From Betaproteobacteria bacterium (GTDB taxonomy: Bacteria; Pseudomonadota; Gammaproteobacteria; Burkholderiales; SG8-41), in contig JACPEF010000227.1 of NCBI GenBank assembly GCA_016183675.1, forward strand, positions 1 to 45,023: a DNA stretch of 45,023 nt. Direction: 5' to 3'. The notes beneath the pieces are model-generated. The model was not told the DNA's origin. It searched no databases and saw nothing but the letters and a program-made list of their open reading frames with translations. A program made the position numbers and the translations under genes. Shown in pieces: positions 1,831-42,084 of this stretch; the first letter of the stretch is position 1; each line of letters opens with the position of its first letter.

Positions 1831-1898
1831 GTTCAAGGTTTCAGGTTCCAAGTTCCAGGTTCAGAAGACTCGTCAATCGTCAGTCATCAGTCGTCACC
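1831..1898 (-). repeat. Type I modular repeat (half copy) in the ahpC-ahpD spacer
   Basis: Read on the minus strand: GGTGACGACTGATGACTGACGATTGACGAGTCTTCTGAACCTGGAACTTGGAACCTGAAACCTTGAAC. This is heptamer GTGACGA-type units, then GTCTT, then GAACCTN units. It starts 5 nt after the ahpC stop. Confidence 0.8.
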
Positions 1899-1903
1899 GC
1901 AGC

Positions 1904-2443
1904 CTAGGCTGCCTTGAGAAAGGCGTCGCCCTTCTGCCAGTTGCACGGGCACAGTTCGTCGCTTTGCAGCGCGTCGAGCACCCGCAGCACTTCCTGCGCG
2001 TTGCGCCCGACGCTAAGATCGTTGACCGACGCGAATCGGATGACGCCTTCAGGGTCCACGATGAAGGTCGCGCGCAATGCGACGCCTTCCTTGCGGTCGA
2101 GGATGCCGAACGCGCCCGACAGCTCGCGCTTGATGTCGGCCAGCATCGGGAACGGCAAGTCCTTGAGATCCGCGTGCGAGCGGCGCCACGCGAGGTGGAC
2201 GTACTCGTTGTCGGTGGAGGCCCCGTAGATCACGGCATCGCGGTCGTTGAACTCGCGGTTGAGCTTGCCAAAGGCTGCGATCTCCGTCGGGCAAACGAAG
2301 GTGAAGTCCTTGGGCCAGAAAAAGACCACCTTCCACTTGCCGGCGTCGGACTGCTCGGTGATGCGGGTGAACGCCTTGTCCTGGTCGGTGGACACCACGG
2401 CCTGGAGGTCGAAACTCGGGATGCGGTCGCCTACTGTCAGCAT
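1904..2443 (-). CDS. ahpC: 2-Cys peroxiredoxin AhpC
   Basis: 179-aa ORF with AAGGAG RBS. Peroxidatic Cys motif FFWPKDFTFVCPTE and resolving Cys region ELCPCNW. Confidence 0.95.
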   Translation of the reverse strand: MLTVGDRIPSFDLQAVVSTDQDKAFTRITEQSDAGKWKVVFFWPKDFTFVCPTEIAAFGKLNREFNDRDAVIYGASTDNEYVHLAWRRSHADLKDLPFPMLADIKRELSGAFGILDRKEGVALRATFIVDPEGVIRFASVNDLSVGRNAQEVLRVLDALQSDELCPCNWQKGDAFLKAA

Positions 2444-2569
2444 GTCTATGACTCCTTGAACGGATTGAACGAAAGTTGACGCTCGCAGTGTGCCGCAACG
2501 GCTCTGATCGCTCCAACGATTAATTTCGTTTAGAATGATCGGAATTCTCGATTATCCGCCGGATCCCCC
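2444..2569. promoter_or_regulatory. Divergent ahpC / oxyR control region (probable OxyR operator and promoters)
   Basis: 126-bp divergent spacer with a locally AT-rich core (2515-2556, CGATTAATTTCGTTTAGAATGATCGGAATTCTCGATTATCC). CGATTA recurs 32 bp apart. OxyR-type LysR regulators normally bind such divergent spacers. No exact consensus was verified. Confidence 0.5.
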
Positions 2570-3520
2570 GTGCCCGCCCTACCCTCGCTGCGCCAGTTCG
2601 GCTACCTGGTCGAGCTTGCCGAGCGCCTCAACTTCCGCCAGGCCGCCGAGGCGCAGTTCGTCACCCAATCCACGCTCTCGGCCGGCATCAAGGAGCTGGA
2701 GACGCTGCTCGGGGTGCAGCTGGTCGAGCGCGACAAGCGCAACGTCCGCCTCACCGCGGTGGGCGAAGAAGTGGTCGCGCGCGCCCGTGGGCTGCTCGCC
2801 GCGGCGAACGACCTCGCAGAAGCCGCGCGCAGCGCCGCCAAGCCGCTCACCGGCACGCTGCGGCTGGGCGCCATACCCACCATCGCGCCCTTCCTCCTGC
2901 CCGAGGTGCTGCCGCCGCTGCGCGAGGCCCATCCGTCGCTCAAGCTGTACCTCCGCGAGGACCTGACCGAGCGGCTGATTGAGCGGCTGCGCGCGGGGAG
3001 CCTCGACGTAGCGCTGATCGCGCTGCCCTACGACACCAGGGACCTCCACGTGCGCGAGCTGTTCCGCGACGAGTTCTGGTTCGTCGCGCGCGAGGACGAT
3101 CCCGCCGCCCGCGCCAAGGAGATCGCGATCCGCAGGCTCAATCCCGGCGAAGTGCTGCTGCTGGAGGAAGGTCACTGCCTGCGCGATCACGCCATCGCCG
3201 CCTGCGGCCCGCGGCGCGGCGCGTGGCAGTCCACGGTGGAAGCGACCAGCCTCCATACCCTGATCCAGATGGTCGAGGGAGGCCTGGGTGTCACGCTGCT
3301 GCCGGAGCTCACGCTGAAGGCGGGCATACTCAAGGGCACGCGGCTGGTTGCGCGACCGTTCGCCGCGCCCGCGCCCGCGCGCACGCTCGTACTGGTTGCT
3401 CGGCGCACGTCCCCCAGGCTGCGCGAGGTGGAACTGCTCGCCGAGTTCATCCTCGAGCAGCGGCGTCGTGGCGCGCGGCCCGGCATTCCGGCGCTGCGCC
3501 GCTCAGCCACAAAAGTGTGA
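2570..3520 (+). CDS. oxyR: LysR-family peroxide sensor OxyR
   Basis: 316-aa ORF with GTG start. N-terminal LysR HTH (LRQFGYLVELAERLNFRQAAEAQFVTQSTLSAGIKELE). Redox Cys pair context EEGHCLRDHAIAACG. Divergent from ahpCD. Confidence 0.85.
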   Translation: MPALPSLRQFGYLVELAERLNFRQAAEAQFVTQSTLSAGIKELETLLGVQLVERDKRNVRLTAVGEEVVARARGLLAAANDLAEAARSAAKPLTGTLRLGAIPTIAPFLLPEVLPPLREAHPSLKLYLREDLTERLIERLRAGSLDVALIALPYDTRDLHVRELFRDEFWFVAREDDPAARAKEIAIRRLNPGEVLLLEEGHCLRDHAIAACGPRRGAWQSTVEATSLHTLIQMVEGGLGVTLLPELTLKAGILKGTRLVARPFAAPAPARTLVLVARRTSPRLREVELLAEFILEQRRRGARPGIPALRRSATKV

Positions 3521-3585
3521 CCCGTGACCGGTGACCAGTAACTGGTTGCTGAACCCGGAACTTTGAACCTTGAACACGGAACGCG
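3517..3585 (+). repeat. Type I modular repeat (half copy) between oxyR and the glycosyltransferase gene
   Basis: GTGACCCGTGACCGGTGACCAG (the oxyR TGA at 3518-3520 lies inside the first unit). Then the palindrome ACCAGTAACTGGT. Then GAACCCGGAACTTTGAACCTTGAACACGGAACG, with period 7. Confidence 0.8.
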
Positions 3586-4864
3586 CGTGAGCGGCAAGCG
3601 CATCGTTTTCGCCACCTTCGGCTCGCTCGGTGATCTGCACCCCTACCTCGCCCTCGCGCAAGAACTCAAGCGGCGGAGTCACCGGCCCCTGATCGCAACC
3701 TTCGAGGAGTACCGCGAGCCGGTCGCGGCGGCGGGCATCGCGTTCGCCGCGATGCGCCCGGCGATGGCGGGGTTCGGTGACCCGCGCGCCATCATGGAAC
3801 GGCTCGTCGATCCGTGGCGCGGCCCTGAGCACATGGTGCGGAAGATTTTCATGCCGCATCTGCGCGAGAGCTACGAGGACCTCGCGCGCGCGTGCGAGGG
3901 CGCCGATCTGCTGGTCACCCACCCGCTCGCGTTCACCGGTCCGCTGCTCGCGGAGCAGCGCGGCCTGCGCTGGGTTTCGACCGTGCTCTCGCCGATGAGC
4001 CTGTTCTCGGCGATCGATCCGCCGCTCTTTCCCGCCGCCGCCTGGCTCCGGCACGTGCGCAAGCTCGGCGTCGCTCCGTACCGCCTGGTGTTTTCCTACG
4101 TGCGCCGGGTGGTACGTCGCTGGGAGGAGCCGCTCCACCGGCTCCGCGCCGAACTGGGACTGCCCTCGCCCGGCCCGATTGCGCAGTTCGAGGGGCAATA
4201 TTCACCGCGGGTCAACCTCGCGCTGTTCTCGCGCCTGCTCGCCGCGCCGCAGACCGACTGGCCCGTCAACACCGTGGTGTGCGGCTTTCCCCGCTATGAC
4301 GGCACACCGCCCGATTCCGCCACGCGGGACGAGCTCGAAGCCTTTCTCGCCGCGGGCGAGCCACCCATCGCGTTCGGCCTTGGCTCCTCGGCGGTGATGG
4401 TCGCGGGCAAGTTCTGGCGGGACGCGATTGCTGCGGCGCGGGCGCTCGGGCACCGCGCGGTGCTCCTCACCGGCGCGCCGCCGGAAGAGCTCGGCGCGCT
4501 GCCGGCTTCGGTAAAGGCGTTCCAGTATCTGCCGTACTCGGCCGTGTTCCCGCGCGCTGCGGCCGTCGTTCACCCGGGCGGTATCGGGACCCTCGCCCAG
4601 GCGCTCGCCAGCGGACGCCCGCAGCTCGTCGTTCCCGTCGCTTTCGATCAGCCCGACAACGCGCGGCGCACGGTGAAGCTCGGCATCGCGCGTGCCGTGC
4701 CGTTCCGCAAGGCAAACGCTGCCGCGATGGCGGCGGCGCTGCAGGCGCTTCTGGCGTCAGCCGGCTGCGCGGCCCGCGCCGAAACCATAGGCGAGAAAGT
4801 CCGCCGGGACGACGGCGCGCGCGCCGCCTGCGACGAACTCGAGCGCGCGGCAGCCAATACCTGA
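3563..4864 (+). CDS. GT1-family (UDP-glycosyltransferase / MGT-like) glycosyltransferase
   Basis: 433-aa ORF. N-terminal KRIVFATFGSLGDLHPYLALAQELKRRSH and C-terminal HPGGIGTLAQALASGRPQLVVPVAFDQPDNARR match the GT1 nucleotide-sugar-binding signature. The annotated TTG start lies in the repeat array, so the in-frame GTG at 3587 may be the true start. Confidence 0.8.
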   Translation: MNLEHGTRVSGKRIVFATFGSLGDLHPYLALAQELKRRSHRPLIATFEEYREPVAAAGIAFAAMRPAMAGFGDPRAIMERLVDPWRGPEHMVRKIFMPHLRESYEDLARACEGADLLVTHPLAFTGPLLAEQRGLRWVSTVLSPMSLFSAIDPPLFPAAAWLRHVRKLGVAPYRLVFSYVRRVVRRWEEPLHRLRAELGLPSPGPIAQFEGQYSPRVNLALFSRLLAAPQTDWPVNTVVCGFPRYDGTPPDSATRDELEAFLAAGEPPIAFGLGSSAVMVAGKFWRDAIAAARALGHRAVLLTGAPPEELGALPASVKAFQYLPYSAVFPRAAAVVHPGGIGTLAQALASGRPQLVVPVAFDQPDNARRTVKLGIARAVPFRKANAAAMAAALQALLASAGCAARAETIGEKVRRDDGARAACDELERAAANT

Positions 4865-4962
4865 TTCAGCCGCCGATGAACGCAGATAGGATCAGACCCG
4901 AAGAGCGTCACCAGTCTTGCTCTTTGTTGCCGTCTTGGCGGTTCAATCTCGCTCTTCGCGCC

Positions 4963-5040
4963 TCACGTGGGCGGAATGACGGGCAAGAGCACATGCGCCG
5001 GACGGTCCGGCCCGAAGTGCAGCGTGACCTTGAGCGGCTT
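4963..5040 (-). pseudogene. Displaced 3' end (last about 25 codons) of a CocE/NonD-family hydrolase gene
   Basis: Minus-strand translation KPLKVTLHFGPDRPAHVLLPVIPPT* compared with the C-terminus of the intact gene at 6344 (GGKVTLHMGPARPAPVLLPVIPPEK*). My codon-by-codon hand alignment gives 50/63 identical nucleotides. No upstream hydrolase sequence is present. Confidence 0.6.
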
Positions 5041-5111
5041 CGGGGTCAGACCCGGTTTTCTGCGGCGTCTTCCCGGCTTTCCCAGCCGTGGCTTTGACTC
5101 AGAGGGGAAAT

Positions 5112-6131: not shown

Positions 6132-6147
6132 GCGGGGAGCCTGTCAT

Positions 6148-6253
6148 ATTGTCAACGTATTGTCAACATTCGTAGATTTATATTGTCAATCTTCCCGGGC
6201 GCCGTCCCGGCATTGCCCGGCAATTGTCAAGGCGGCGTCCTGACGATCGTCAA
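6148..6253 (-). promoter_or_regulatory. Array of TTGACAAT motifs upstream of the wHTH-ATPase gene (candidate operators / -35-like boxes)
   Basis: ATTGTCAA on the plus strand at 6148-6155, 6159-6166, 6182-6189 and 6223-6230, plus partial GTCAA at 6249-6253. Centre spacings are 11, 23 and 41 bp. The first copy is 17 nt from the GTG start. TATAAAT follows the third copy on the minus strand. Confidence 0.5.
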
Positions 6254-11352: not shown

Positions 11353-11476
11353 GCCGCCAAGACGCCAAGGACGCCAAGCAAACCAAAATCCTTAACCACA
11401 AAGGACGCAAAGGAAACAAGAACTCAGACCAGGTTCATGCTCGATGAAACCTTCGTGTCCTTTGTGTCCTTTGTGG
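11353..11476 (+). repeat. Type III modular element: CGCCAAG array plus CACAAAGG hairpin
   Basis: GCCGCCAAGACGCCAAGGACGCCAAG (11353-11378). Arm CCACAAAGGACGCAAAGGAAAC (11396-11417) is complementary to GTGTCCTTTGTGTCCTTTGTGG (11455-11476). Starts 17 nt after the stop of the upstream + gene. Confidence 0.7.
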
Positions 11477-12157
11477 TTCAAGAACTTGGGTCTTTTCGAT
11501 ACGGTTAAGGCCTTCTGCGTCGCGCTCGCCTGCGCGGCGCTGCTCGCCGCGCCCGCCGCAGCCCAGGCGGTCGAACACGGCCAGCACAGCTTCTCCCGCG
11601 CGGAAAAGTGGGCGCAGGTCTTCGATGATCCGGCGCGCGACGAATGGCAAAAGCCGGACGAAGTGATCCGCGCGTTGAAGCTTGCCCCGGAAGCCCTGGT
11701 CGCCGACATCGGCGCGGGCACCGGCTACTTCGCGGTGAGGTTTGCACGCGCGGTGCCGAAGGGCCGCGTCTACGGCGCGGACACCGAGCCCGACATGGTG
11801 CGCTACCTCGCCGAGCGCGCGCAGCGCGAGAAGCTCGGCAACCTCACCGCAGTCCCCGCCAAACCGGACGACCCGGGCATTCCGGCGGCGGTGGATCTCG
11901 CGATCCTGGTGGACACGTACCACCACGTGTCCGACCGCGAGCGCTACTTCACGAACCTGCAGAAATCGCTCAAGCCGAAAGGCCGGCTTGCGATCATCGA
12001 CTTTACGCTCGACTCACCCGTCGGCCCGCCGAAGCGCGCCCGCATTCCGGCCGACAAGGTGAAGCAGGAGCTCGCGCGCGCGGGCTACAAGCTCGTGCAG
12101 GAGCACGCCTTCCTGCCCAACCAGTACTTCCTCGTCTTCCGGCCTCAGAAGCAGTGA
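11444..12157 (+). CDS. Class I SAM-dependent methyltransferase with N-terminal signal-like segment
   Basis: 237-aa ORF with SAM motif I VADIGAGTGYFAVRFA. The first 11 codons run through the hairpin arm, so the in-frame TTG at 11486 is an alternative start (GLFDTVKAFCVALACAALLAAPAAAQA). Confidence 0.8.
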   Translation: MKPSCPLCPLWFKNLGLFDTVKAFCVALACAALLAAPAAAQAVEHGQHSFSRAEKWAQVFDDPARDEWQKPDEVIRALKLAPEALVADIGAGTGYFAVRFARAVPKGRVYGADTEPDMVRYLAERAQREKLGNLTAVPAKPDDPGIPAAVDLAILVDTYHHVSDRERYFTNLQKSLKPKGRLAIIDFTLDSPVGPPKRARIPADKVKQELARAGYKLVQEHAFLPNQYFLVFRPQKQ

Positions 12158-12210
12158 CGCAGTGACGTGGTGATGCAGTGAAGAAATGACGCAGTGACAA
12201 AGTGAAGGGT
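12151..12210 (+). repeat. CAGTGAC-type tandem array starting at the methyltransferase stop codon
   Basis: GCAGTGACGCAGTGACGTGGTGATGCAGTGAAGAAATGACGCAGTGACAAAGTGAAGG. The TGA stop (12155-12157) lies inside the first unit. Confidence 0.7.
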
Positions 12211-12265
12211 TAGAGCGTCCCGGCGCTTCGGATTAAACGCGCGTAACTAGAAAGTAAAGCCCTCA

Positions 12266-14545: not shown

Positions 14546-14569
14546 AAAAAAAACCCCGCCGAAGCGGGG
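14546..14569 (-). terminator. Rho-independent terminator of cspA
   Basis: Minus strand: CCCCGC-TTCG-GCGGGG followed by nine T, 23 nt after the cspA stop. Confidence 0.85.
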
Positions 14570-14592
14570 TTTCGCGGTGATGCGGGCGGACT

Positions 14593-14799
14593 TCACGCGG
14601 CTTTCAGATTGGTCGCGGAGATCTTGCCGTTGTTGCCCTTCTCCAGGTCGAACGAGACTTTCTGCTTCTCGCTCAGCGTGCCAAGACCCGCGCGCTCGAC
14701 CGCGGAGATGTGCACGAACACGTCCTTCGAGCCGTCATCGGGTTGAATGAAGCCGAAGCCTTTGGTGCTGTTGAAAAACTTTACGGTGCCGGTAGACAT
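14593..14799 (-). CDS. cspA: Cold-shock protein CspA family
   Basis: ATG at 14799 after [39 protein letters not shown] contains the RNP1 and RNP2 motifs. The longer ORF to 14916 has no support. Confidence 0.95.
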
Positions 14800-14980
14800 A
14801 ATGTCCTCCAGATGTGGCGTGGCCGCGCGCGAAAATGCGCGGGGCATCAAATTTACCTGTGGGAAAGGACCGAAAGTGCCAGCCGGAAATGAACTACAAA
14901 CAGACCCAAAGCGCATTCGACCCCGCCATTATGCGCCCAAAGCGCCGGCACGTATATGATTCCTTTCTCGGGGTGCAACT

Positions 14981-15048
14981 CATCACTCATCACCGGGTTT
15001 CAAGCCGGTCACCAGTAATCGTCACCATTATCTCGTCACCCATCACTG
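14981..15048. repeat. CATCAC/GTCACC short-period repeats in the cspA-infA divergent spacer
   Basis: CATCACTCATCACCGGGTTTCAAGCCGGTCACCAGTAATCGTCACCATTATCTCGTCACCCATCACTG. Confidence 0.6.
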
Positions 15049-15642: not shown

Positions 15643-15665
15643 GTCATCACTCATCACCCATCACG
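15643..15665 (-). repeat. GTGATG heptamer array immediately after the Bug gene stop
   Basis: Minus strand after TAG: CGTGATGGGTGATGAGTGATGAC. Confidence 0.55.
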
Positions 15666-16637: not shown

Positions 16638-16656
16638 CTCGATTCTCCTCTAGTCG

Positions 16657-16724
16657 CTTAGGGGACAGACCACCAAGAACTCCTCCACCAGCGTCTTAGA
16701 ACACCTTAGTGGTCTCTGCCCTAA
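16657..16724. repeat. REP-like palindromic element (CTTAGGGGACAGAC family), copy 2
   Basis: CTTAGGGGACAGACCACCAAG (16657-16677) pairs with CCTTAGTGGTCTCTGCCCTAA (16704-16724), 17/20. Confidence 0.7.
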
Positions 16725-16779
16725 TGATAATTGAATTTTGCTTGATCTAGCTCAAAATCGAGGTCCGCCTCTAACCTGA

Positions 16780-16845
16780 CTTAGGGGACAGACCACTAAG
16801 AAGTTGTTGGGGTGAAGCAGTCCTTAGTGGTTTGTCCCCTATAAG
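16780..16845. repeat. REP-like palindromic element (CTTAGGGGACAGAC family), copy 3
   Basis: CTTAGGGGACAGACCACTAAG (16780-16800) pairs with CTTAGTGGTTTGTCCCCTATAAG (16823-16845), with 1 mismatch and a 2-nt bulge. Confidence 0.7.
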
Positions 16846-16855
16846 GGTTCGCTGG

Positions 16856-22984: not shown

Positions 22985-23016
22985 CGTGACTCGTGACGGG
23001 TGGGCCGTGACGGGTA
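22985..23016 (+). repeat. CGTGAC short-period array downstream of the Bug gene
   Basis: CGTGACTCGTGACGGGTGGGCCGTGACGGGTA. The stop codon itself sits in GAGTGACC (22941-22948). Confidence 0.6.
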
Positions 23017-23023: not shown

Positions 23024-23167
23024 CTAGTGCCGTTCCAACTTGTTTCTCCAAACTTGGGCGGCTAGCCCCGTTCCAACTTGATTGGCCTAATGACCACGAG
23101 AACTCTTCTGCTGAATATCGTGCCTCGATCACGCATCACAGATAGCTCGAAATAGTTGGAACGGCAC
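23024..23167. mobile_element. MITE-like element of the CTAG-TGCCGTTCCAAC family (one about 106-bp copy, 23062-23167, plus an adjacent solo 38-bp end, 23024-23061)
   Basis: CTAGTGCCGTTCCAACTTGTTTCTCCAAA (23024-23052) is identical over 29 nt to the reverse complement of the right end of the 37952-38059 element. There is a second left end CTAGCCCCGTTCCAACTTG (23062-23080). The right end AAATAGTTGGAACGGCAC (23150-23167) matches the other end of the 37952 copy over 18 nt. Confidence 0.6.
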
Positions 23168-23830: not shown

Positions 23831-24098
23831 GCGTGACTGGTGAATCGTGCCCAGTGACTCGAAAAGCCGTCAGATCGGGAGGTCGGGAGGGCGGGAGATC
23901 GTGAGACCGAAAAGACGGGAGATCGTGAGATCGGGAAGTCGTGAAAGGGAACTTCCATCTCCCGCGCTCACGCACTCACGCCCTCACGGATTTTGTGGCT
24001 CTCACGCCCTCACGGATTTTGTCGCCCTCACGCGCTCACGCTCTAACGCTCTAACGGAACTTGTCGCTCTCACGCTCTCACGCTCTCCCGCACTCACC
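23831..24098 (+). repeat. Type II composite 8-mer element, copy 1 (about 268 bp)
   Basis: GTGAC-like units (23831-23860), then GGGAGATCGTGAGA-type 8-mers (23871-23950), a centre GGGAACTTCCATCTCCC, then CTCACGCN 8-mers with three copies of the word CCCTCACGGAnnTTGTCGC (23963-24098). It ends on the stop codon of the downstream minus-strand gene. Confidence 0.8.
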
Positions 24099-24687
24099 TC
24101 TTGTGTTTGCCGATGCGCCAGCCGTGGCGAGCGAGATGCTGCTCGCCGAACGCCACCGGCTCCGCCTCGAGCGCGGGAGCGACGGTGTCGTTCCAGCGGT
24201 TTAGGAAACCGTTGATCGCCACCGCGCCCATGATCTCCACGATCTGCGCGTCGGTCCAGTGCCGCTTCATCCGCTCGAACAGCTCGTCGGTGACGGCGTT
24301 CGGCTGTGAGGCCGCGGCGACCGCGAAGTCGAGCGCGACGCGTTCGGCTTCGCTGTAGAGCGGGCTCGTTCGGTACTCGATCACCGCCTCGAGCTTCGCA
24401 TCGTTCACGCCGGCGCGGTGCGCCGCCTCGGCGGCGTGCGCCATGGAATAATTGCACCCGTGCGTGCGGCTCGCCATGTACGCCACGAGCCGCTTGAAGC
24501 CGATGTTCACCTCGCTCGCCGGGTCCCACACCGCGGAAGCGAGCTGGGCGAGCGCCTTCACGAGCTTCGGCTTGCGGCTCATGACGAGCGCGCTGTTGGG
24601 CACATAGCCCAGCAACCGCTTGAAGTTCTGGAAAGCTTCCTGCAGGTCGGGGTTCGCATCCGCCGGCAGCGGGTCCAGGCGTGCCAT
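24094..24687 (-). CDS. Carboxymuconolactone decarboxylase (AhpD-like) family protein
   Basis: ORF 24094..24693 has a GTG start overlapping the upstream stop as GTGA. I prefer the ATG at 24687, 5 nt after GGAG. The segment KRLVAYMASRTHGCNYSMAHAAE is typical of the CMD family. Confidence 0.85.
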   Translation of the reverse strand: MARLDPLPADANPDLQEAFQNFKRLLGYVPNSALVMSRKPKLVKALAQLASAVWDPASEVNIGFKRLVAYMASRTHGCNYSMAHAAEAAHRAGVNDAKLEAVIEYRTSPLYSEAERVALDFAVAAASQPNAVTDELFERMKRHWTDAQIVEIMGAVAINGFLNRWNDTVAPALEAEPVAFGEQHLARHGWRIGKHKR

Positions 24688-25667: not shown

Positions 25668-25730
25668 GGTTTCCTCCTGGTGCGGTCGGGTTCCGGCCCA
25701 ATCAGCTGGTTCAGCGGCAGCCGAACTTGT

Positions 25731-25836
25731 CCGTCTGGAACCGGCGGACTTAATCGGGCGCTTCTCGCCCGAGCACCCGCCGGTTGAGCGGCGGTCCGCC
25801 GCCCGTCTCGAACCGGCGGACTTAATCGGGCGCTTC
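25731..25836. repeat. Two 34-bp direct repeats (1 mismatch), 72 bp apart
   Basis: CCGTCTGGAACCGGCGGACTTAATCGGGCGCTTC (25731-25764) and CCGTCTCGAACCGGCGGACTTAATCGGGCGCTTC (25803-25836). Each overlaps a different hairpin: TCGGGCG-CTTCT-CGCCCGA in the first, and CTTAATCGGG-N10-CCCGATTAAG in the second. Confidence 0.7.
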
Positions 25837-26976: not shown

Positions 26977-27074
26977 TGCCAGCTTTTCCTTCCGCTCATA
27001 TTCAGTGGTTGAGTGACCGTGTGATAAGGCTGGCCCCCCGCTCGTTACCGGTCGCTCGCCACCGGTCACCGTTC

Positions 27075-28140: not shown

Positions 28141-28330
28141 CCAGTGACGTGACCAGTGGCGGGCGACGGGAAATCGCTGCGAACCGTGAGTCGGGAGATC
28201 GTGAGATCCGGGAGCCGTGAGATCGTCAAATCGGGAGATCGTGAGGAGGTATTCCCTTCTCTCGCGCTCACGCTCTTACGCCCTCACGGAATTTGTCGCT
28301 CTCCCGCTCTGACGCTCTCGCGGCCTCACG
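28141..28330 (+). repeat. Type II composite 8-mer element, copy 2 (about 190 bp)
   Basis: CCAGTGACGTGACCAGTGG, then GGGAGATCGTGAGATCCGGGAGCCGTGAGATCGTCAAATCGGGAGATCGTGAGG, a centre AGGTATTCCC, then CGCGCTCACGCTCTTACGCCCTCACGGAATTTGTCGCTCTCCCGCTCTGACGCTCTCGCGGCCTCACG. Confidence 0.8.
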
Positions 28331-28374
28331 TCGGACTTCCGGCGCCCCTCATTCCCCCTCATCCCTCCGCGGTC

Positions 28375-29137: not shown

Positions 29138-29232
29138 GCGTGACGGGTGACCAAGGTCTTGTTCAAAGTTCAAAGTTCAAAGTTGCACGATGAACCCTGA
29201 ACCTTGAACGTTGAACCTGGAACCTGGAACAG
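29138..29232 (+). repeat. Type I modular element, full copy (GTGAC - GTCTT - GTTCAAA x3 - loop - GAACCTN x6)
   Basis: GCGTGACGGGTGACCAAGGTCTTGTTCAAAGTTCAAAGTTCAAAGTTGCACGATGAACCCTGAACCTTGAACGTTGAACCTGGAACCTGGAACAG. Begins 19 nt after the stop of the upstream + gene. Alignable with 32731-32848 on the minus strand. Confidence 0.8.
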
Positions 29233-29249
29233 CTCCTTCCCTCCGCCCT

Positions 29250-30522: not shown

Positions 30523-30533
30523 GATTCTCTCCT

Positions 30534-30613
30534 GACGGGTGATGGGTGATGGGTGATGAGTGATCAGTGACGAGTGACGAACGCCATCTCCTTCTGCCTT
30601 CTGCCTTCCTTGC
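30534..30613. repeat. GGTGATG/AGTGACG heptamer array plus CCTTCTG module
   Basis: GACGGGTGATGGGTGATGGGTGATGAGTGATCAGTGACGAGTGACGAACG (30534-30583), then CCATCTCCTTCTGCCTTCTGCCTTCCTTGC (30584-30613). It fills the whole spacer between two minus-strand genes. Confidence 0.75.
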
Positions 30614-32356: not shown

Positions 32357-32367
32357 CCCCCTAAGAA

Positions 32368-32518
32368 GTGACGAATGCTGGTGACGATTACTGGTGACGG
32401 GTGCTGGTGACGGGTAAACAACGTTTTTCGTCACTATCTTTCGTCAGTTCCTTTCGTCACCATTTTTCATCACCATCATTCGTCACCATTAATCGTCACT
32501 TCTTTACTAATCGGTCAC
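32368..32518. repeat. Long inverted array: (CTGGTGACG)n facing (CGTCACN)n
   Basis: GTGACGAATGCTGGTGACGATTACTGGTGACGGGTGCTGGTGACGGGT (32368-32415), then a loop AAACAACGTTTTT, then TCGTCACTATCTTTCGTCAGTTCCTTTCGTCACCATTTTTCATCACCATCATTCGTCACCATTAATCGTCAC...CGGTCAC (to 32518). Confidence 0.8.
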
Positions 32519-32721
32519 TCGGGCTTGATGCCCGCCGCCTTGATCACCTTCGCCCACTTCGCCATGTCGGATCGAATGACGGCCGCGAATGCTTCCGGGG
32601 TATTCCCCACCGGCTCGGCGCCGCTGCTGAGAAAGCGTTTCCTGGTATCGGGAACCTTGAGCGCGTAGACCACGCCCTCGTGGAGTCTTGCGATGATGTC
32701 GCGCGGCGTGCCGGGGATGAG
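32515..32721 (-). pseudogene. 3' relic (last about 68 codons) of a Bug/TctC-family gene
   Basis: Not in the ORF track because there is no start codon. My minus-strand translation is LIPGTPRDIIARLHEGVVYALKVPDTRKRFLSSGAEPVGNTPEAFAAVIRSDMAKWAKVIKAAGIKPE*. This matches the family C-terminus (..GTP..I...L......P....R....G.EP....PE.F...I..E..KW..VI...GIK). The frame is closed upstream by TGA at 32743-32745, inside the neighbouring repeat element. Confidence 0.7.
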
Positions 32722-32730
32722 GCATGAGGG

Positions 32731-32848
32731 CCTGTTCCAGGTTCAACGTTCAAGGTTCTAGGTTCAAGGGTCAAGGTTTAGAGTTCAGGGTTCGTCGCGC
32801 AACTTTGAACTTTGAACTCAGAACTTTGAACAAGACTCCCGTCACCCC
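32731..32848 (-). repeat. Type I modular element, full copy
   Basis: Minus strand: GGGTGACGGGAGTCTTGTTCAAAGTTCTGAGTTCAAAGTTCAAAGTTGCGCGACGAACCCTGAACTCTAAACCTTGACCCTTGAACCTAGAACCTTGAACGTTGAACCTGGAACAGG. Begins 30 nt after the stop of the upstream minus-strand transporter gene. Confidence 0.8.
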
Positions 32849-34516: not shown

Positions 34517-34836
34517 GATGAGTGACGAAACTAACGTGAGGGCGTGAGAGCGTCAGGGCGATAAGTTCCGTGAGGGCGTAAGAGCGTGAGCGCGACAGAA
34601 CCCGTGAGGGCGTTAGGGCGAGAGAGCGTGAGAGGGACAAGATCCGTGAGGGCGTAAGAGCGGGAGCGCGGGAGAGCGACAGCGACCCTCTGAACGTTCC
34701 ATCTCACCATTTCACGATCTCACGATCTCCCGGTTTCTCTCGATCTCACGACCTCTCGATCTCAGAGTCTTTCGATCTCCCGATCTCACGGTTGTTCCGG
34801 TCACTGGTCACCGGTCACCGGTCACTGGTCACCGGT
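34517..34836 (-). repeat. Type II composite 8-mer element, copy 3 (reverse orientation, about 320 bp) with a GTCACYG heptamer block
   Basis: Plus strand: CGTGAGGGCGTGAGAG-type units with three GCGAnAnnnnCCGTGAGGG words (34535-34680), then a centre, then GATCTCACGATCTCCC-type units (34702-34790), then GTCACTGGTCACCGGTCACCGGTCACTGGTCACCGG (34797-34835) abutting the TPR gene stop. Confidence 0.8.
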
Positions 34837-35655
34837 TTAGTTGGGCGGGAAGGGCTTCCCGGCGCGGTAGAGCTGCAGCCGCTCCTGCGCGCCCCTGTTC
34901 TTGGCGAACTCCTTGTCCTCGAGCGCCTTCATCTGCCACTTCACGGCGGCTGCGAAGTCGCCGGCGCGGGCGTAGGCCGCCGCGAGCGTATCGATGTGGC
35001 CGGGCTCCTTCCAATGGGTGAGCTCGCACGCCTGCAACGCGAGCTCCACCGCCCGTTTGCCGTCGCGCAGCGCCGGGTTCTTCCCGGTGGCGAGCAGCCA
35101 CGCGAGCGAGTCGAGCGCATCGTCATCGCGCGGATCGAGCTTGATCGCCTCGTTGTAGTCCTGGATCGCCTCTTGGTAGCGCCCGAGCTTGTCGTAGGAG
35201 CTTGCGCGGTTGGCGTAGTTGTTCGCTTCGTGAGGAGCCAGCCTGATCGCCTCGCCATAGTCCTTGATCGCCTGCTCGTATCGCTTGAGGTTCTCGTAGG
35301 CCGTTCCGCGGCCCGCGTAGGCGTCGGAGAACCCGGGGTCGAGCCGGATCGCCTCGCTGTAATCCTTGATCGCGCGCTCGTTCTGCCCGAGCTCCTGGTA
35401 GGAGACGCCGCGGTTGTAATACGCGCGCGTGAATTTCGGATCGAGGCGGATCGCCTCGTCGAAGAAACCGACCGCCTTCTGATAGAGACCGGTCTTGCCC
35501 TCGATGAGGCCCTGGGTAAAGGCGTCCCTCGCCGCCTCCGGCTGCGCCGCGCACACTCCCGCCGCGATCATCGCGAGCGAGAATAGCGCCGCCCGCGCAC
35601 CGGCCATCGCCTGCCCGGAACCCGTGAGTCGTGATTCGACTCCTTTTGCCTTCAT
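34837..35655 (-). CDS. Secreted tetratricopeptide-repeat (TPR) protein
   Basis: 272-aa ORF. At least five 34-aa repeats share the A..(D/Y)...AI.LDP pattern (AIRLDPKFTRAYYNRG, AIRLDPGFSDAYAGRG, AIRLAPHEANNYANRA, AIKLDPRDDDAL). Signal-like ALFSLAMIAAGVCAAQ. An alternative ATG is at 35607. Confidence 0.85.
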   Translation of the reverse strand: MKAKGVESRLTGSGQAMAGARAALFSLAMIAAGVCAAQPEAARDAFTQGLIEGKTGLYQKAVGFFDEAIRLDPKFTRAYYNRGVSYQELGQNERAIKDYSEAIRLDPGFSDAYAGRGTAYENLKRYEQAIKDYGEAIRLAPHEANNYANRASSYDKLGRYQEAIQDYNEAIKLDPRDDDALDSLAWLLATGKNPALRDGKRAVELALQACELTHWKEPGHIDTLAAAYARAGDFAAAVKWQMKALEDKEFAKNRGAQERLQLYRAGKPFPPN

Positions 35656-35690
35656 CCTTCTGCCTTCTGCCTTAGCTGCTCATCCCTTAT
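35645..35690 (-). repeat. CAGAAGG module overlapping the TPR gene start
   Basis: Minus strand: GGGATGAGCAGCTAAGGCAGAAGGCAGAAGGATGAAGGCAAAAGG. The ATG of the TPR gene directly follows two CAGAAGG units. Confidence 0.6.
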
Positions 35691-36004: not shown

Positions 36005-36106
36005 CGTCAGTCATCACTCGTCAGTCGTCACCGGGGTTAAGGCGCTCATCCCTCTCCTTCATCCTTCTACCTTCTGCCTTCTGCCTTCTTCCATCCGCCT
36101 TCCGCC
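36005..36106. repeat. CGTCAnT heptamers plus a second CAGAAGG/CCTTCTG module
   Basis: CGTCAGTCATCACTCGTCAGTCGTCACC (36005-36032). GCTCATCCCTCTCCTTCATCCTTCTACCTTCTGCCTTCTGCCTTCTTCCATCCGCCTTCCGCC (36044-36106). Confidence 0.65.
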
Positions 36107-36196
36107 GTGGGCAGCGTGAAGTATAGTCGAAGCGCGCCCGGGCCGGCCCCCCACCGCGCATTGACCCGTCCCGGCGCGTGCGTTAACGTCGCGGGC

Positions 36197-36382
36197 TCGA
36201 TCATCAATCGCCTGAACCAGGCGGTGCACGACGCGCTCGCCGCCCCCGACATCAGGCAACGCTTCCCGGAGCTCGGCGTGGAGGCGCGTCCCGCGACCCC
36301 CGAGGCCTTCCGCGAGCTGCTCATCTCCGAGATCGCCAAGTGGAAAGCCGTGATCGAGAAAGCGAAGATACCGCGCCAGTGA
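36197..36382 (+). pseudogene. 3' relic (last about 61 codons) of a Bug/TctC-family gene
   Basis: The C-terminal part of the 91-aa ORF 36107..36382 reads SIINRLNQAVHDALAAPDIRQRFPELGVEARPATPEAFRELLISEIAKWKAVIEKAKIPRQ*, which matches the family C-terminus. The 30 codons upstream of it have no family similarity. Confidence 0.7.
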
Positions 36383-36612
36383 CCGGGGCGCCGTGAGATC
36401 GTGAAGTCGGGAAATCGGGAGATTGAAAAGCCGGGAGATCGGGAGTTCGGGAGATCGGGAGATCGTGAACTCGAAGAATATCGTCCCTCTCACGCTCTCA
36501 CGCCCTCACGGAACTTGTCGCCCTCCCGCGCTCACGCTCTCACCCTCTAACACCCTGACGCTCTCACGGATTCTGTCGCTCTCCCGCCCTCACGCTCTCC
36601 CGCTCTCACGTC
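36378..36612 (+). repeat. Type II composite 8-mer element, copy 4 (about 235 bp)
   Basis: Starts at the relic stop (CAGTGACCGG). CGTGAGATCGTGAAGTCGGGAAATCGGGAGAT...GGGAGATCGGGAGATCGTGAAC (36392-36473), a centre TCGAAGAATATCG, then CTCTCACGCTCTCACGCCCTCACGGAACTTGTCGCC...CTCTCACGGATTCTGTCGCTCTCCCGCCCTCACGCTCTCCCGCTCTCACG (36485-36610). Confidence 0.8.
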
Positions 36613-37508: not shown

Positions 37509-37564
37509 GGTTGTGCTGCGGCTTGCCCGCGGCTATTCTATAAGATCAAACCCCAAGAGCTTCA

Positions 37565-37694
37565 GCCACAGAGAGCACAGAGAACACAGAGTTAGGGAGG
37601 AGCACCCCCTCCCTACCCCTCCTCCTCAGGCGGAGGGAAGGGCGGGGGTTGTTGACCGAGTTTATTTCTACGTGAACTCTCTGTCCTCTGTGGC
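37565..37694 (+). repeat. Type III-like element: CACAGAG hairpin
   Basis: GCCACAGAGAGCACAGAGAACACAGAGTT (37565-37593) faces AACTCTCTGTCCTCTGTGGC (37675-37694). The loop holds an internal AGGGAGG-N7-CCTCCCT hairpin. Confidence 0.7.
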
Positions 37695-37711
37695 TATGTA
37701 TTTTTGTTTTT

Positions 37712-37921: not shown

Positions 37922-37951
37922 TTTGTTTTTTCTATCGGCGTTTATCCGCGG

Positions 37952-38059
37952 CTAGTGCCGTTCCAACTATTTGTGCCAAGCCAACTATTTCTCCAGTGGC
38001 CGACTGTCCCCGGTGGGCGGGCCACCGGTATTTGGAGAAACAAGTTGGAACGGCACTAG
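37952..38059. mobile_element. 108-bp MITE-like element, CTAG-TGCCGTTCCAAC family
   Basis: CTAGTGCCGTTCCAACT (37952-37968) and AGTTGGAACGGCACTAG (38043-38059) are perfect 17-bp inverted repeats. The outer CTAG could instead be a 4-bp duplication. Internal hairpin CCGGTGG-GCGGG-CCACCGG. Confidence 0.7.
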
Positions 38060-38088
38060 TATGCCTGCGCCAAACGAGGAGGATTACC

Positions 38089-39084: not shown

Positions 39085-39085
39085 C

Positions 39086-39148
39086 GAGTTCACGAAGGTC
39101 ATCAGGAGCGAGCTCGTGAAATTGGGCAAGGTCATCAAGGAATCGGGG
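39086..39148 (+). pseudogene. Very short 3' relic (about 21 codons) of another Bug/TctC-family gene, directly after the intact gene's stop
   Basis: Translation EFTKVIRSELVKLGKVIKESG matches the family C-terminal consensus (EF..(F/V)I..E..KW.KVIK..G). It is followed by the GC hairpin GCGCGGGCC-N8-GGCCCGCGC (39148-39173). Short, so the call is tentative. Confidence 0.45.
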
Positions 39149-39270
39149 CGCGGGCCGAGCAGCAGGCCCGCGCTTGCGTTCCGCAGCGCCATGGGTCAAA
39201 CTCGTTTTCAGAACAACGGGGCGCCCAGGCGGAGCCCCCGGATCCCGCAACGACCAAGAAGGAGACAATC

Positions 39271-40236: not shown

Positions 40237-40252
40237 GGCGCGGCTGAAATTA

Positions 40253-40278
40253 GCCGCCAAGGCGCCAAGCACGCCAAG
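40253..40278 (+). repeat. CGCCAAG array (type III module, partial copy)
   Basis: GCCGCCAAGGCGCCAAGCACGCCAAG, 17 nt after the stop of the upstream + gene. Same position and near-identical sequence as 11353-11378. Confidence 0.6.
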
Positions 40279-40312
40279 AAAAACTGATCTCAATAACAAC
40301 AGGAAAAACAAA

Positions 40313-40346
40313 ACGGCGCTGCGGAGTCCGCAGCGCCGTTTTTTTT
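40313..40346. terminator. Strong rho-independent terminator between convergent Bug genes (probably bidirectional)
   Basis: ACGGCGCTGCGG-AGT-CCGCAGCGCCGT (12-bp stem) followed by eight T on the plus strand. On the minus strand the same stem is followed by TTTTGTTTTT. Confidence 0.85.
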
Positions 40347-40519
40347 GGAAGTGCCAGCGACTCGTCACCTGTTACTTATCACGCTTTCTCCTCATCCCTG
40401 GTCTACGACCCCGGCCCGCCGCGCTGCATCGCGTCGGGCGTTCGCCGGCTCGAACGTGCGCAGGCACGTTCTTCGAAACCCCGGCTTACCCCTCCGCCCT
40501 CATCCCTCGGCAGCTCCCG

Positions 40520-41515
40520 TCACTGAGGTTGTATTCCCGCCTCCTTGATGAGCTTCGCGTAGCGCACGTTCTCCGATCGGAGCAGCTTCATGAAGGCCTC
40601 GGGCGACGAGGTCTCGATCGGGTCCGCGCCCTGGGTGAGGAAACGCTGCTTCGTCAGCGGATCGCGCAAGACGGAGTTGATATCCCTGGCGAGCCTGTTG
40701 ACCAGCGGCTTCGGCGTGCCCGCAGGCACGAACATGCCGAACCAGGCGACGTGCTCCGCGGCGGGCAGCCCGGCTTCCGCGACTGTCGGCACCTCGGGTA
40801 GCGCGGGGATGCGCCTGGGCGGCGTCACGGCGAGCGCGCGCACGCGCCCGTCCTTCACCATCGGCACCGCCGCCGGCGCGGCGAACACGAAGAAGTGCGT
40901 GCGCCCGGAGAAGAGGTCGGACCAGCCGTCGGCCAGGATCTTGTACGGGACGTGCACCGTTTGCAGGTTCGCGGCGCGGGCGACGATCTCTCCGCCAAAG
41001 TGGGCGATCGAGCCGACGCCCACCGAAGCGTAGTTGAGCTGGCCCGGACGCGCTCTCGCGTAGGCGATGAATTCCTGCAAGGTCTTCGGGGGGAGTTGGT
41101 TCGACACGCCGACGATATTGGGGATGCTGGCGATTTGCAGGAGCGGGGCGCCGTCCCTGAACGGGTCGTACGGCGGCTTTTTTTGCAGCATCGGGGAGGT
41201 GAGATAGGGCTGGGCGAACAGCCCGATGGTGTGGCCGTCCGGTGTCGCCTGCAGCACGATCGGCGTGCCCACCAGCCCGCCCGCGCCGGGGCGGTTGTCC
41301 ACCACCACCTGCACTTTGTAGAGGTCGGTGAGCGCGGCGCCAATGGTGCGCCCGAGGAAGTCGCTCGCGGTGCCCGGGGGGAACGGCACCACCAGGCGGA
41401 TCGGCTTGTTCGGGAAAGCCTGTCCCGAGCTTGTCGAAGGAGCAAGCCCTGCGGCGGTCGCCGCGGCCAGCAGGACCGCAAGGCCTGCTGCTTTCAACGC
41501 GCGCTGGAAGTGCAT
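40520..41515 (-). CDS. Bug/TctC-family periplasmic solute-binding protein (10 of 10)
   Basis: 331-aa ORF with GAGGAGGAGGG RBS. MHFQRALKAAGLAVLLAAATAAGLAPSTSSGQAFPNKPIRLVVPFPPGTASD. Confidence 0.9.
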   Translation of the reverse strand: MHFQRALKAAGLAVLLAAATAAGLAPSTSSGQAFPNKPIRLVVPFPPGTASDFLGRTIGAALTDLYKVQVVVDNRPGAGGLVGTPIVLQATPDGHTIGLFAQPYLTSPMLQKKPPYDPFRDGAPLLQIASIPNIVGVSNQLPPKTLQEFIAYARARPGQLNYASVGVGSIAHFGGEIVARAANLQTVHVPYKILADGWSDLFSGRTHFFVFAAPAAVPMVKDGRVRALAVTPPRRIPALPEVPTVAEAGLPAAEHVAWFGMFVPAGTPKPLVNRLARDINSVLRDPLTKQRFLTQGADPIETSSPEAFMKLLRSENVRYAKLIKEAGIQPQ

Positions 41516-41544
41516 GGTCCCTCCTCCTCTTGGCTAGAATCCCT

Positions 41545-41583
41545 GAGTCGTGAGCCGTTAACCAGTCACTGGTCACTGGTCGC
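41545..41583. repeat. GTCACTG heptamer array upstream of the Bug gene
   Basis: GAGTCGTGAGCCGTTAACCAGTCACTGGTCACTGGTCGC. Confidence 0.55.
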
Positions 41584-41682
41584 AGCGCCCAATGTGCCGC
41601 ATAGGGTAGACCGCCTCCCCCTCCCGCGCAAACTCTGATGAGGCGTGGCCCGTGACGACGTAAAGCCTTTCACCCATTCAAT

Positions 41683-41730
41683 CGTTCACCCGTTCATCGT
41701 TCCGCGTTCATCGTTCATCGTTGCCCGTCA
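41683..41730 (-). repeat. CGTTCAT (GATGAAC) heptamer array starting at the DUF1330 gene stop
   Basis: CGTTCACCCGTTCATCGTTCCGCGTTCATCGTTCATCGTTGCCCGTCA. The stop (41728-41730) is the last unit on the plus strand. Confidence 0.65.
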
Positions 41731-42033
41731 GGGCGTGGCGTCGCCCGATTCCACGATCACCTGCTCGACCTCGCTCACGCCAGGCGCCCGGCGGAACGCG
41801 GCGGCTTCCTGGTACTCGGGCGAGGCGTGGCACGTCACCGCCTGCTCGAGCGAGGAAAACTCCACCACGGCGTAGCGGTTGAACCGGTCGGTGCCTTCCA
41901 TGACCTGGTAGCGCCCGCCGCGCGCGAGCGGCTTGCCGCCGTATTTCTTGAGGATATCCGGGACGCGGTCGGTGTATTTCTTGTACTCGACGGGGTCGTT
42001 GATCCTGGCGCGGGCGATCCAGTATGCGGGCAC
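41728..42033 (-). CDS. DUF1330-family protein
   Basis: GTG at 42033 after AAGGAGAGAAAA. VPAYWIARARINDPVEYKKYTDRVPDILKKYGGKPLARGG...AVVEFSSLEQAVTCHASPEYQEA is typical of DUF1330. The longer ORF to 42150 runs through a repeat array. Confidence 0.8.
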   Translation of the reverse strand: MPAYWIARARINDPVEYKKYTDRVPDILKKYGGKPLARGGRYQVMEGTDRFNRYAVVEFSSLEQAVTCHASPEYQEAAAFRRAPGVSEVEQVIVESGDATP

Positions 42034-42050
42034 TTTTCTCTCCTTGAAAA

Positions 42051-42084
42051 GCGTGATTCGTGAATCGTGATTCGTGATTCGACG
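42051..42084. repeat. GTGATTC heptamer array between dctM and the DUF1330 gene
   Basis: GCGTGATTCGTGAATCGTGATTCGTGATTCGACG. Confidence 0.65.

Follow-up and report, generated by a model that had tools for sequence, protein, structure and literature searches.

The window analyzed here is a complete contig (JACPEF010000227.1) of 45,023 nucleotides (nt), with about 66% G+C, and this report concerns the tandem arrays of 7- and 8-nt units that occupy the spacers between its genes. A gene map built from periodicity of G+C at third codon positions (GC3) plus Pfam matches, in which start coordinates are approximate, divides the window into 35.2 kb of coding and 9.8 kb of non-coding DNA. The genes include an ahpC/ahpD-like pair, a LysR regulator, S15 peptidases, a TRAP transporter, cspA, infA, and 13 full-length TctC/Bug solute receptors, along with two C-terminal remnants of such receptors. 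No tRNA genes were found in the window, and Rfam returned no family at the gathering score. The closest named homologues belong to metagenome-assembled genomes from groundwater and soil that are labelled Betaproteobacteria or Burkholderiales. The lineage hosting the arrays is an uncultured group of Betaproteobacteria/Burkholderiales that is common in those two habitats. A protein look-up found no contig encoding the AhpC protein of the window.

The arrays had been listed in a sequence-only reading of this DNA, and Tandem Repeats Finder (TRF) recovers them at essentially all of their positions. Three that TRF missed (22985-23016, 29138-29156, and 41545-41583) are visible in the sequence. TRF reported 85 rows in the window, against a mean of 17 (largest, 27) in 30 dinucleotide-preserving shuffles, and 39 rows with a period of 7 or 8, against 4.2 (largest, 11). 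The bases covered were 2224, versus 379 in the shuffles. Non-coding DNA holds 1716 of the repeat bases (17.5% of 9.8 kb) and coding DNA holds 508 (1.4% of 35.2 kb), in line with the proposal that the arrays are restricted to intergenic DNA. Those TRF arrays that do fall in coding DNA are low-scoring and GC-rich, and mostly have a period of 3, 6, 9, or 12. The words noted earlier are not equally frequent in genes, being 2 to 20 times denser outside them. Exact tandem 7-mers occur at 1.80 per kb in the window versus 0.26 per kb in a control set of 858 kb of unrelated genome loci (7-fold), and exact tandem 8-mers at 0.56 versus 0.03 per kb (18-fold); exact tandem 6-mers show no enrichment, the window and the control loci being equal. 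Repeats were found in about 19 to 20 of about 38 spacers, or about half, somewhat below the "at least 22" first counted. The small shared vocabulary is real. It comprises about 10 to 13 words, reducible to the groups GTGA(C/T/G), GTTCA, CCTTC/CCCTCA, CGCCAAG, and CACARAG, and each word consists of an invariant core of 4 to 5 nt and two to three variable positions. The open reading frame (ORF) extensions that run 5' over some arrays, already regarded as doubtful, are spurious: DUF3750 homologues have 242 to 246 amino acids and the longest ORF here has 298. False 5' extensions of this kind, of 40 to 90 codons, arise from arrays in automatic annotation.

The arrays adjoin or include gene ends, and the TGA of the first array unit serves as the stop codon of several genes (3518-3520, 12155-12157, and 24094-24096). 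On the plus strand, the spacer from the LysR gene to a glycosyltransferase gene (3517-3585) carries (GTGACCN)x3, with the LysR TGA in the first unit, and then (TGAACCN)x5 upstream of the glycosyltransferase. A direct array of (GCAGTGAC)x6-7 at 12151-12210 likewise has a methyltransferase stop in its first unit. Also on this strand, stop codons are followed by (CGCCAAGRA)x3 at 11353-11378 (TRF and inspection), by (CGCCAAGV)x3 at 40253-40279, and, at the end of a TctC gene, by three loosely spaced GTGACNN units at 22985-23016 (by inspection). The spacer between the divergent cspA-like gene and infA contains TCATCAC/GTCACC-type units (14978-15048). A 90-nt spacer of two same-strand genes is filled by (GGTGATG)x6 and then (CCTTCTG)x3 at 30533-30613, and (CGTCAGT)x3.7 followed by (CCTTCTG/CCTTCAT)x8 lies upstream of a TctC C-terminal remnant at 36005-36106. 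On the minus strand, the spacer between ahpC and the ahpD-like gene (1831-1896) is filled by an array, as had been noted; the array spans 1815-1903 and reads, in sense, stop, (GTGACGA/CTGAYGA)x4, (CTGAACC/TGGAACY)x5, start. The stop codons of two TctC genes are followed by (GTGATGR)x3, in sense and directly 3' (15643-15665), and by GGTGACC-type units with a TRF period of 14 (27013-27074). The gene for a tetratricopeptide repeat (TPR) protein has arrays on both sides. Directly 3' of its stop codon lies (GGTGACC/AGTGACC)x5.7 in sense (34797-34836), and (GAAGGCA)x4.6 in sense (35642-35673) runs into its start codon, an array that is kept in a relative (L180) at 79% identity. The last two array regions flank a DUF1330 gene, also on the minus strand. 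The first (41545-41730) has (CAGTCAC)x3 at 41545-41583 and, at 41669-41730, a sense-strand (GATGAAC)x6 that immediately follows the stop codon of this gene. In the second (42051-42165), (AATCACG)x4 in sense lies a short way 5' of the ribosome-binding site for DUF1330, and (GTGAGTC)-type units come after a DctM stop codon.

The two TctC remnants, at 36152-36382 (plus strand) and 32518-32742 (minus strand), retain only the C terminus (positions 212-273 of the 274 in the Pfam profile), with matches of E = 0.002 and 0.00025 that fall below the curated cut-off. Arrays occupy the place of the missing gene part at both remnants, and they may mark or have caused the truncation.

The inverted blocks and hairpins that the sequence-only reading had described were borne out for some arrays only. 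Folding was better than that of shuffled sequences, with z scores of -4 to -8, for six segments (11390-11480, 29138-29236, 32362-32506, 32728-32838, 34795-34840, and 37560-37700). The hairpin at 11396-11476 has arms of CACAAAGGA and TCCTTTGTG units (dG -40.5, z -6.5). At 29138-29232, on the plus strand, (GTGACSN)x2 precedes a hairpin of (GTTCAAA)x3.4 against (TGAACCT)x6 (z -4.1). A period-13 hairpin at 32362-32506 sets GTGACGR plus 6 nt (x4) against TCGTCAC plus 6 nt (x6) (dG -59.6, z -8.1), and another at 32728-32838 pairs (GTTCAAG)x8.6 with (AACTTTG)x4.4 (z -5.6). The array 3' of the TPR-protein gene at 34797-34836 has a z of -4.1. The region at 37565-37694 (z -6.0) had been read as a CACAGAG array; its outer arms are indeed CACAGAG and CTCTGTG, but its middle is a different, GC-rich palindrome. 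In contrast, the arrays at 1815-1903, 12150-12215, and 30528-30613 have z scores near 0 (0.04, 0.6, and 0.4, respectively); the first of them consists of direct arrays and lacks any hairpin.

The most elaborate members of the repertoire are four composite elements of 150 to 260 nt with a common layout, [CG(G/T)GAG(A/G)TC]n, centre, [CTC(A/C)CGCN]n. The left arm consists of CG(G/T)GAG(A/G)TC octamers broken by GAAAAGCC. The centre has 13 to 35 nt and often ends in ATTTCCC. The right arm consists of CTC(A/C)CGC(T/C) octamers broken by CTCACGGAAYTTGTCGC, an insert that occurs nine times in the window at up to two mismatches versus 0.13 expected. By eye against the consensus sequences, this insert was considered as a sigma-54 promoter or a site for integration host factor (IHF), and both were rejected because the critical bases are absent. 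The termini of the composites are CGTGAG...CTCACG, with a 5' end of CGTGAG or CGGGAG. Right-arm and left-arm units are reverse complements of each other at all but one fixed position, so that every unit has a built-in mismatch. Element 1 (23872-24101, plus strand) has G(G/T)GAGRTC octamers, a centre, and CTCACGCN octamers with three CTCACGGAnnTTGTSGC inserts, and the stop codon of a CMD-family gene (24094-24096) sits in its last unit. Element 2 (28166-28341, plus strand) lies in a divergent spacer and is followed by CCCTCAT-type units. Element 3 (34535-34790, minus strand) is in reverse orientation and extends from the stop codon of the TPR-protein gene to the start codon of a BT1-transporter gene, with the GGTGACC array at 34797-34836 as its outer flank. 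Element 4 (36391-36610, plus strand) has a stop codon 9 nt away on one side and an amidohydrolase start codon on the other. The composites are often nested, with GTGACNN heptamers outside the left arm and TTGATCTT and then CCCTCAT heptamers outside the right arm.

In metagenomes of groundwater and soil, the composite family recurs at more than 40 loci that are non-orthologous and flanked by unrelated genes. When metagenomes were scanned with a 22-mer taken from the composites, 54 loci were obtained; about 48 of them, originating in the Hainich groundwater study and in JGI samples of soil and sediment, contain an element in full or in part. Among the matches listed in a scan of genome contigs with CTCACGGANNTTGTCGC, only a groundwater Betaproteobacteria metagenome-assembled genome (L074) held a true element, the rest being chance intragenic matches.

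Folding gave little sign that the composites act as structured RNA. They fold only marginally better than shuffles (z = -0.1, -2.5, and -2.8), and the long imperfect hairpins first ascribed to them were overstated. When the order of right-arm units was permuted, the fold was not weakened (mean z -0.13, 39 elements), and since the energy is unchanged there is no unit-level covariation. Fine-tuned composite hairpins were rejected on both grounds. Selection on the RNA strand was rejected as well, as 12 elements folded on both strands showed no consistent sense advantage and no G-U excess; a G-U-compensated hairpin in L180 was apparent only and did not generalize. An Rfam search gave no match at the gathering score or at E values up to 1, apart from the cspA leader. 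The arrays do not resemble a specific RNA gene or a riboswitch. In the window, terminator-like sites are about as numerous as expected by chance (15 versus 13.9), sigma-70 promoter-like sites are also at chance level, and the one convincing intrinsic terminator, a separate and classical one at 40310-40342, lies beside an array (40253-40279) and outside the arrays.

The arrays are oriented with respect to genes and to each other. The G-rich GTGA/GTTCA units lie 5' and their complements 3', which places TGA-bearing units in sense after stop codons and puts the G-rich arm first in inverted pairs. Within 40 nt 3' of stop codons, read in sense, GTGA and TCAC stand at 29:4 in the window, which is free of selection bias, at 142:23 in related metagenome loci, which were picked by the composite-element motif so that their octamer, polarity, and G-rich-first pair counts are inflated, and at 24:32 in high-GC control loci. 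For genes with at least two such units after the stop, the ratio is 8:0 in the window (p = 0.008), 35:4 in the relatives (p = 3e-7), and 2:0 in the controls. Upstream of start codons the bias is weakly reversed (21:8 and 48:31). Among adjacent inverted array pairs, the G-rich arm comes first in 39 and the C-rich arm in 1. A palindrome read on the other strand keeps its arm order, and this rule is therefore not reducible to the direction of transcription of one neighbour. A candidate rule that puts GTGA in the left half of a spacer and TCAC in the right proved to be a mere tendency (62:43 versus 29:64), the rules for stop proximity and inverted pairs being much cleaner. Owing to the GTGA-type polarity after stops, further stop codons build up in every frame. 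The share of genes with all three frames closed no more than 45 nt from the stop codon is 23% in the window, 9% in the relatives, and 1% in the controls, a pattern confined to the sense strand.

Variation within units is uneven. For GTGA(C/T)NN, divergence from the array consensus is at most 4% at positions 1 to 5 versus 11 to 25% at positions 6 and 7, and for GTTC-type units it is at most 4% at GTTC versus 17 to 23% at the last three positions. In the octamer, divergence is 27 to 34% at positions 2 and 6, at most 1% at positions 1 and 4, and 4 to 8% at positions 7 and 8. Neutral decay after slippage would be even across positions, so that either the core is recognized by something or only some variants amplify.

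The occurrence of the arrays in relatives was sampled in about 335 kb of related metagenome contigs and in two more distant relatives, L180 and L119. The same heptamers and octamers are present there, with the words CCTTCTG, GGTCACY, GTTCAAG, CCCTCAT, and AACCTGG reused. One locus could be compared in four metagenomes; its flanks are about 100% identical, and the length differences in its arms amount to exactly 8, 8, and 16 nt. In more diverged strain pairs, the differences come in blocks of six units. Such whole-unit insertions and deletions are the behavior expected of slipped-strand mispairing. The content of a spacer can also be replaced wholesale. In a contig with the same gene order and a DUF3750 93% identical (L122), a 165-nt spacer with CGCCAAGGA, CACGAAGGA, and GTTACGG units replaces the 303-nt spacer of element 1, and homology with the window picks up on one side precisely at the stop codon upstream and on the other 25 nt short of the ATG downstream. 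In L180, where the TPR protein is 79% identical, the spacer before the BT1-transporter gene reads stop, (GGTGATG)x4, (CCCATTA)x2, (CGAGTCA)x4, ATG, and this stands in place of the (GGTGACC)x5 and element 3 of the window.

An array inside a gene was seen in L119. At L119:6459-6571, a (GGTTCAA)x5.6/(TTGAACC)x4.9 inverted array lies in frame within an intact mfd gene of 1175 amino acids. It corresponds to residues of about 340 to 380, which are unaligned to Escherichia coli Mfd (343-353, an interdomain stretch), and it looks like an intragenic insertion. Rickettsia palindromic elements (RPEs) are palindromic repeats able to sit in frame inside protein-coding genes, and the mfd array resembles them, but RPEs are elements of 100 to 150 nt of unique sequence and not tandem arrays. 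This single RPE-like case is in the relative and not in the window.

One close described system is in Xanthomonas, also a high-GC proteobacterium, where about 185 heterogeneous arrays of GGGAATC-type heptamers are 89 to 93% intergenic (Rehm et al. 2015, PMC4692102). Of these arrays, 70 to 75 belong to convergent inverted pairs; the arrays lie a mean of 28 nt from the upstream ORF, and their function is given as unknown (PMC4692102). The (GGGANTN)n arrays resemble those of the window in combining conserved and variable positions, in their convergent inverted pairs (about 40% there), in lying near an upstream stop with the G-rich strand in sense, and in varying extensively in length and sequence between close species (PMC4692102). 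The octamer GGGAGATC is GGGAATC with one inserted base. The differences are that a single word dominates in Xanthomonas, four units are preferred, and quadruplexes were demonstrated, whereas many words are used here and most lack G tracts; the inserted 17- to 22-mers and the multi-module order of the composites are not described for the Xanthomonas arrays (PMC4692102). Long simple-sequence repeats are a second point of comparison. In the survey of Mrazek et al. (2007), as related in PMC4679880, heptanucleotides are the commonest of these repeats, and four Burkholderia species and Xanthomonas are among the top ten genomes for repeats with units of 5 to 11 nt. The repeats of that survey are non-coding, similar to those here, and are ascribed to polymerase slippage; the survey, as summarized there, is statistical and describes no shared grammar, polarity, or composite elements, unlike what is seen here (PMC4679880). 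Both precedents run counter to the earlier remark that no equivalent was known in high-GC genomes. Cultured Burkholderiales provide further instances: in Ralstonia a stop codon is immediately followed by (GGGAGATC)x4, and Mycetohabitans has (TGGTCAC)x5.

The comparison with the short tandemly repeated repetitive (STRR) sequences of heterocystous cyanobacteria, which the sequence-only reading had proposed, holds at the word level. STRR heptamers are likewise tandem, intergenic 7-nt units; STRRs occur at many loci per genome, with a few words in each genome. A Euhalothece plasmid has (TGGTCAC)n at 20 sites, one of them x13, and this word resembles the arrays at 34797-34836. The classical STRR2 unit is TTGGTCA. 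The arrays here share with STRRs and long simple-sequence repeats the tandem excess of 7- to 8-nt units, the non-coding bias, and polymorphism in unit number. They differ from STRRs in their host, a high-GC betaproteobacterium, and in having more word families, 8-nt beside 7-nt units, and composite palindromes with inserts. Repetitive extragenic palindromic (REP) sequences and bacterial interspersed mosaic elements (BIMEs) of enterobacteria, and the REP doublets (REPINs) of Pseudomonas, are also extragenic imperfect palindromes in mosaics of few modules, often at gene 3' ends or inside operons, with hundreds of copies per genome. REPs are single fixed palindromes of 20 to 40 nt, however, and the arrays here are direct repeats of 7 to 8 nt that are palindromic only at the level of the whole array; no near-identical copies were found here. 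Direct repeats of TAACTGA in marine Beggiatoaceae, for which a post-transcriptional role has been proposed and not shown, are intergenic heptamers as well, close to start codons and with a word shared with cyanobacteria (MacGregor 2015, PMC4679880). That system has a single word, low-GC hosts, almost no inverted copies, and a position mainly upstream of starts, in contrast to the position after stops seen here (PMC4679880).

Plasmids of unrelated bacteria carry the right-arm octamer. A perfect (CTCTCACG)x14 occupies an AT-rich spacer just upstream of parA on the Komagataeibacter plasmid pKNA08 (L181:600-712), and arrays of about 300 nt made of CGCTCTCA/CGCTCCCG, which are found on Streptomyces linear plasmids, lie on a Streptomyces plasmid (L182:560-830). 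These arrays indicate that the octamer expands independently in unrelated bacteria. No paper was returned when the literature was searched with the octamers as exact strings. Three features appear to be undescribed, namely the composite family, the grammar of many words, and the polarity as quantified here.

In sum of behavior, the arrays gain and lose whole units, turn over rapidly in content, keep out of coding DNA, share a vocabulary across the lineage, combine a core with variable positions in each unit, and are polar. They are long simple-sequence repeats with 7- to 8-nt units, of the same kind as STRRs, the Xanthomonas GGGAATC arrays, and the Burkholderia intergenic repeats. The reading that we favor, with a probability of roughly 60%, is that the arrays are driven by slippage, are filtered by what gene ends tolerate, and have at most a generic structural role like that of REPs. 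Because neither a 7-nt nor an 8-nt unit can stay in frame, arrays would survive only between genes. At the 3' end of a gene, the TGA-bearing orientation would be tolerated because it closes all three frames, and with the frames closed an array could grow as far as the stop codon, or across it, and the protein would gain no long C-terminal extension. The imperfect palindromes that result would be at most generic spacers at gene boundaries, similar to REPs and BIMEs, whose possible effects are folding in RNA or DNA, protection of 3' ends, or the uncoupling of adjacent cistrons. Since the G-rich arm precedes it, the C-rich arm would be paired once transcribed, leaving no exposed Rho loading site on either strand. 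In the same framework, the composites are an old, dispersed family that is still remodelled by slippage.

Several points weigh against this reading. Pure slippage leaves unexplained both the spread of one composite architecture (CGTGAG...CTCACG) to more than 40 unrelated loci and the polarity common to unrelated words. The uneven conservation within units, which a neutral model does not predict, hints at recognition of the core. CCTTCTG, CGCCAAG, and CACAAAGG contain no TGA, so that frame closure is not the whole story. Part of the evidence, moreover, comes from metagenome loci selected by the composite motif and from genes whose starts are approximate.

The spread of the composites is what a mobile element would explain. 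In that case the composites, and perhaps the simpler inverted arrays, would be non-autonomous elements, either miniature inverted-repeat transposable elements (MITEs) or elements like REPINs. A transposase whose gene lies elsewhere in the genome, for example a REP-associated tyrosine transposase (RAYT), would copy them, and slippage would only remodel them later. The defined termini, the recognizable centre ending in ATTTCCC, the internal inserts, the unrelated genes that flank the many copies, presence/absence differences between close relatives, and the insertion-like array in the L119 mfd gene all point in this direction. Of the features expected of a MITE, the composites have the inverted termini CGTGAG/CTCACG, but no target-site duplications were visible at the elements when these were looked for, and element length across the family varies from 86 to 332 nt. 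Non-orthologous copies are about 70 to 81% identical and none is near-identical, and thus there is no sign of recent transposition. Furthermore, the "empty" sites are filled by other words of the vocabulary, and Pfam scans of the main ORFs of the window returned no transposase domain. We regard a mobile origin as unlikely on balance, but as a serious rival for the composites.

The polarity could alternatively be the result of function. The arrays would then be a lineage-wide punctuation of gene boundaries, in which TGA units in sense after stops act as frame-independent translational stops, in a genome where out-of-frame stops are rare, and palindromes with the G-rich arm first insulate cistrons on both strands, for instance by hiding C-rich RNA from Rho. 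The vocabulary would be kept by selection or by a recognition factor and would not be the neutral debris of slippage. We consider this idea unlikely.

Another candidate explanation has the arrays serving as multivalent sites for a lineage-specific DNA- or RNA-binding protein and the words being variants of its core. Such a protein could be of a nucleoid type, of an iteron or partition type, or post-transcriptional, as proposed for the Beggiatoaceae TAACTGA repeats. Invariant cores with variable linker positions in each word, strict polarity relative to genes, and the location of (CTCTCACG)x14 just upstream of parA, a typical position for a partition site, would all be consistent with binding. 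There are, however, at least five unrelated cores (GTGA, GTTCA, CCTTC, CGCCAAG, and CACARAG), the content of a locus is replaced wholesale between close relatives, unit number is unconstrained, and no candidate protein has been identified. This explanation is accordingly judged improbable.

The nearness of GGGAGATC to GGGAATC, and its fourfold array after a Ralstonia stop codon, raise the idea that the arrays are regulatory repeats forming G-quadruplexes, like Xanthomonas GGGAATC or Nostoc GGGGAYT, and act through four-stranded DNA or RNA near gene ends. Two composite left arms (23877-23895 and 36433-36459) do have at least four G3 tracts with 5-nt loops. These are the only 2 of more than 40 arrays in the window with a canonical motif, whereas in quadruplex-forming repeats most arrays should show at least four G3 tracts in succession, separated by short loops. 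Octamer position 2 alternates between G and T in 27% of units, which breaks the G tracts, and most words (GTGACCN, GTTCAAG, CCTTCTG, and CGCCAAG) have none. A quadruplex role is very improbable. Lastly, an assembly or chimera artefact of a metagenomic contig has practically no standing: although the short-read contigs with an identical TPR-protein gene (L177-L179, about 1 kb each) end inside the flanking arrays, they come from three independent sequencing runs with the same arrays and identical flanks, related elements are present in JGI, ENA, Logan, and NCBI assemblies, the same words recur in independent assemblies and in the roughly 335 kb of contigs from relatives, and the arrays have boundaries that respect stop and start codons.

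Slippage within the limits set by gene ends remains the reading that we prefer, and the arrays bear on broader matters. Because contigs stop inside them, arrays break short-read assemblies of this lineage, a practical concern where genomes are recovered from metagenomes of groundwater and soil. STRRs and long simple-sequence repeats became known more than 30 years ago, yet no function is generally accepted for them. The lineage studied here is an unusually dense case with many words, and it makes hypotheses testable through its strict polarity at stops and in inverted pairs, its invariant cores with variable linkers, and the wholesale replacement of words at orthologous spacers with the grammar kept.

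Other features of the window stand apart from the arrays. The left end of the contig (1-1259) has a much lower G+C content (about 0.5 to 0.58) and a Cys-rich DUF2180-like ORF (882-1220, minus strand), and it may be foreign DNA. The cold-shock gene leader at 14546-14909 (minus strand) has a sub-threshold Rfam match to the cspA thermoregulator (44 bits versus a gathering score of 78; E = 3e-8), and a T-rich stem-loop follows at about 14550-14577. A distinct repeat family lies at 16638-16855 and at about 740-800. Its palindromes are about 75 nt long and have CTTAGGGGACAGACCACYAAGAA...CCTTAGTGGTYTSTCCCCTAA as their basis (two copies), a related CCTTAGGGGCCAGACTCGA...TCGAGTCTGACGCCTAAGG belongs with them, and the family is lower in GC and non-tandem. 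A direct repeat of about 45 nt (GAACYGGCGGACTTAATCGGGCGCTTC...) has two copies at 25700-25830, in the spacer between a TctC gene and a gene of the isocitrate/isopropylmalate dehydrogenase family. Two sets of sites may be operators. The sequence TTGTCAA(C/T/G) occurs five times at 6147-6240, with TATTGTCAACG present twice, and these copies lie upstream of a gene whose product has MarR and HATPase domains. The motif GTGCCGTTCCAAC(T/A) recurs at 23025-23045, 37955-37975, and 38045-38062, and its occurrences at 37955-38062 form an inverted pair just upstream of a TctC gene.

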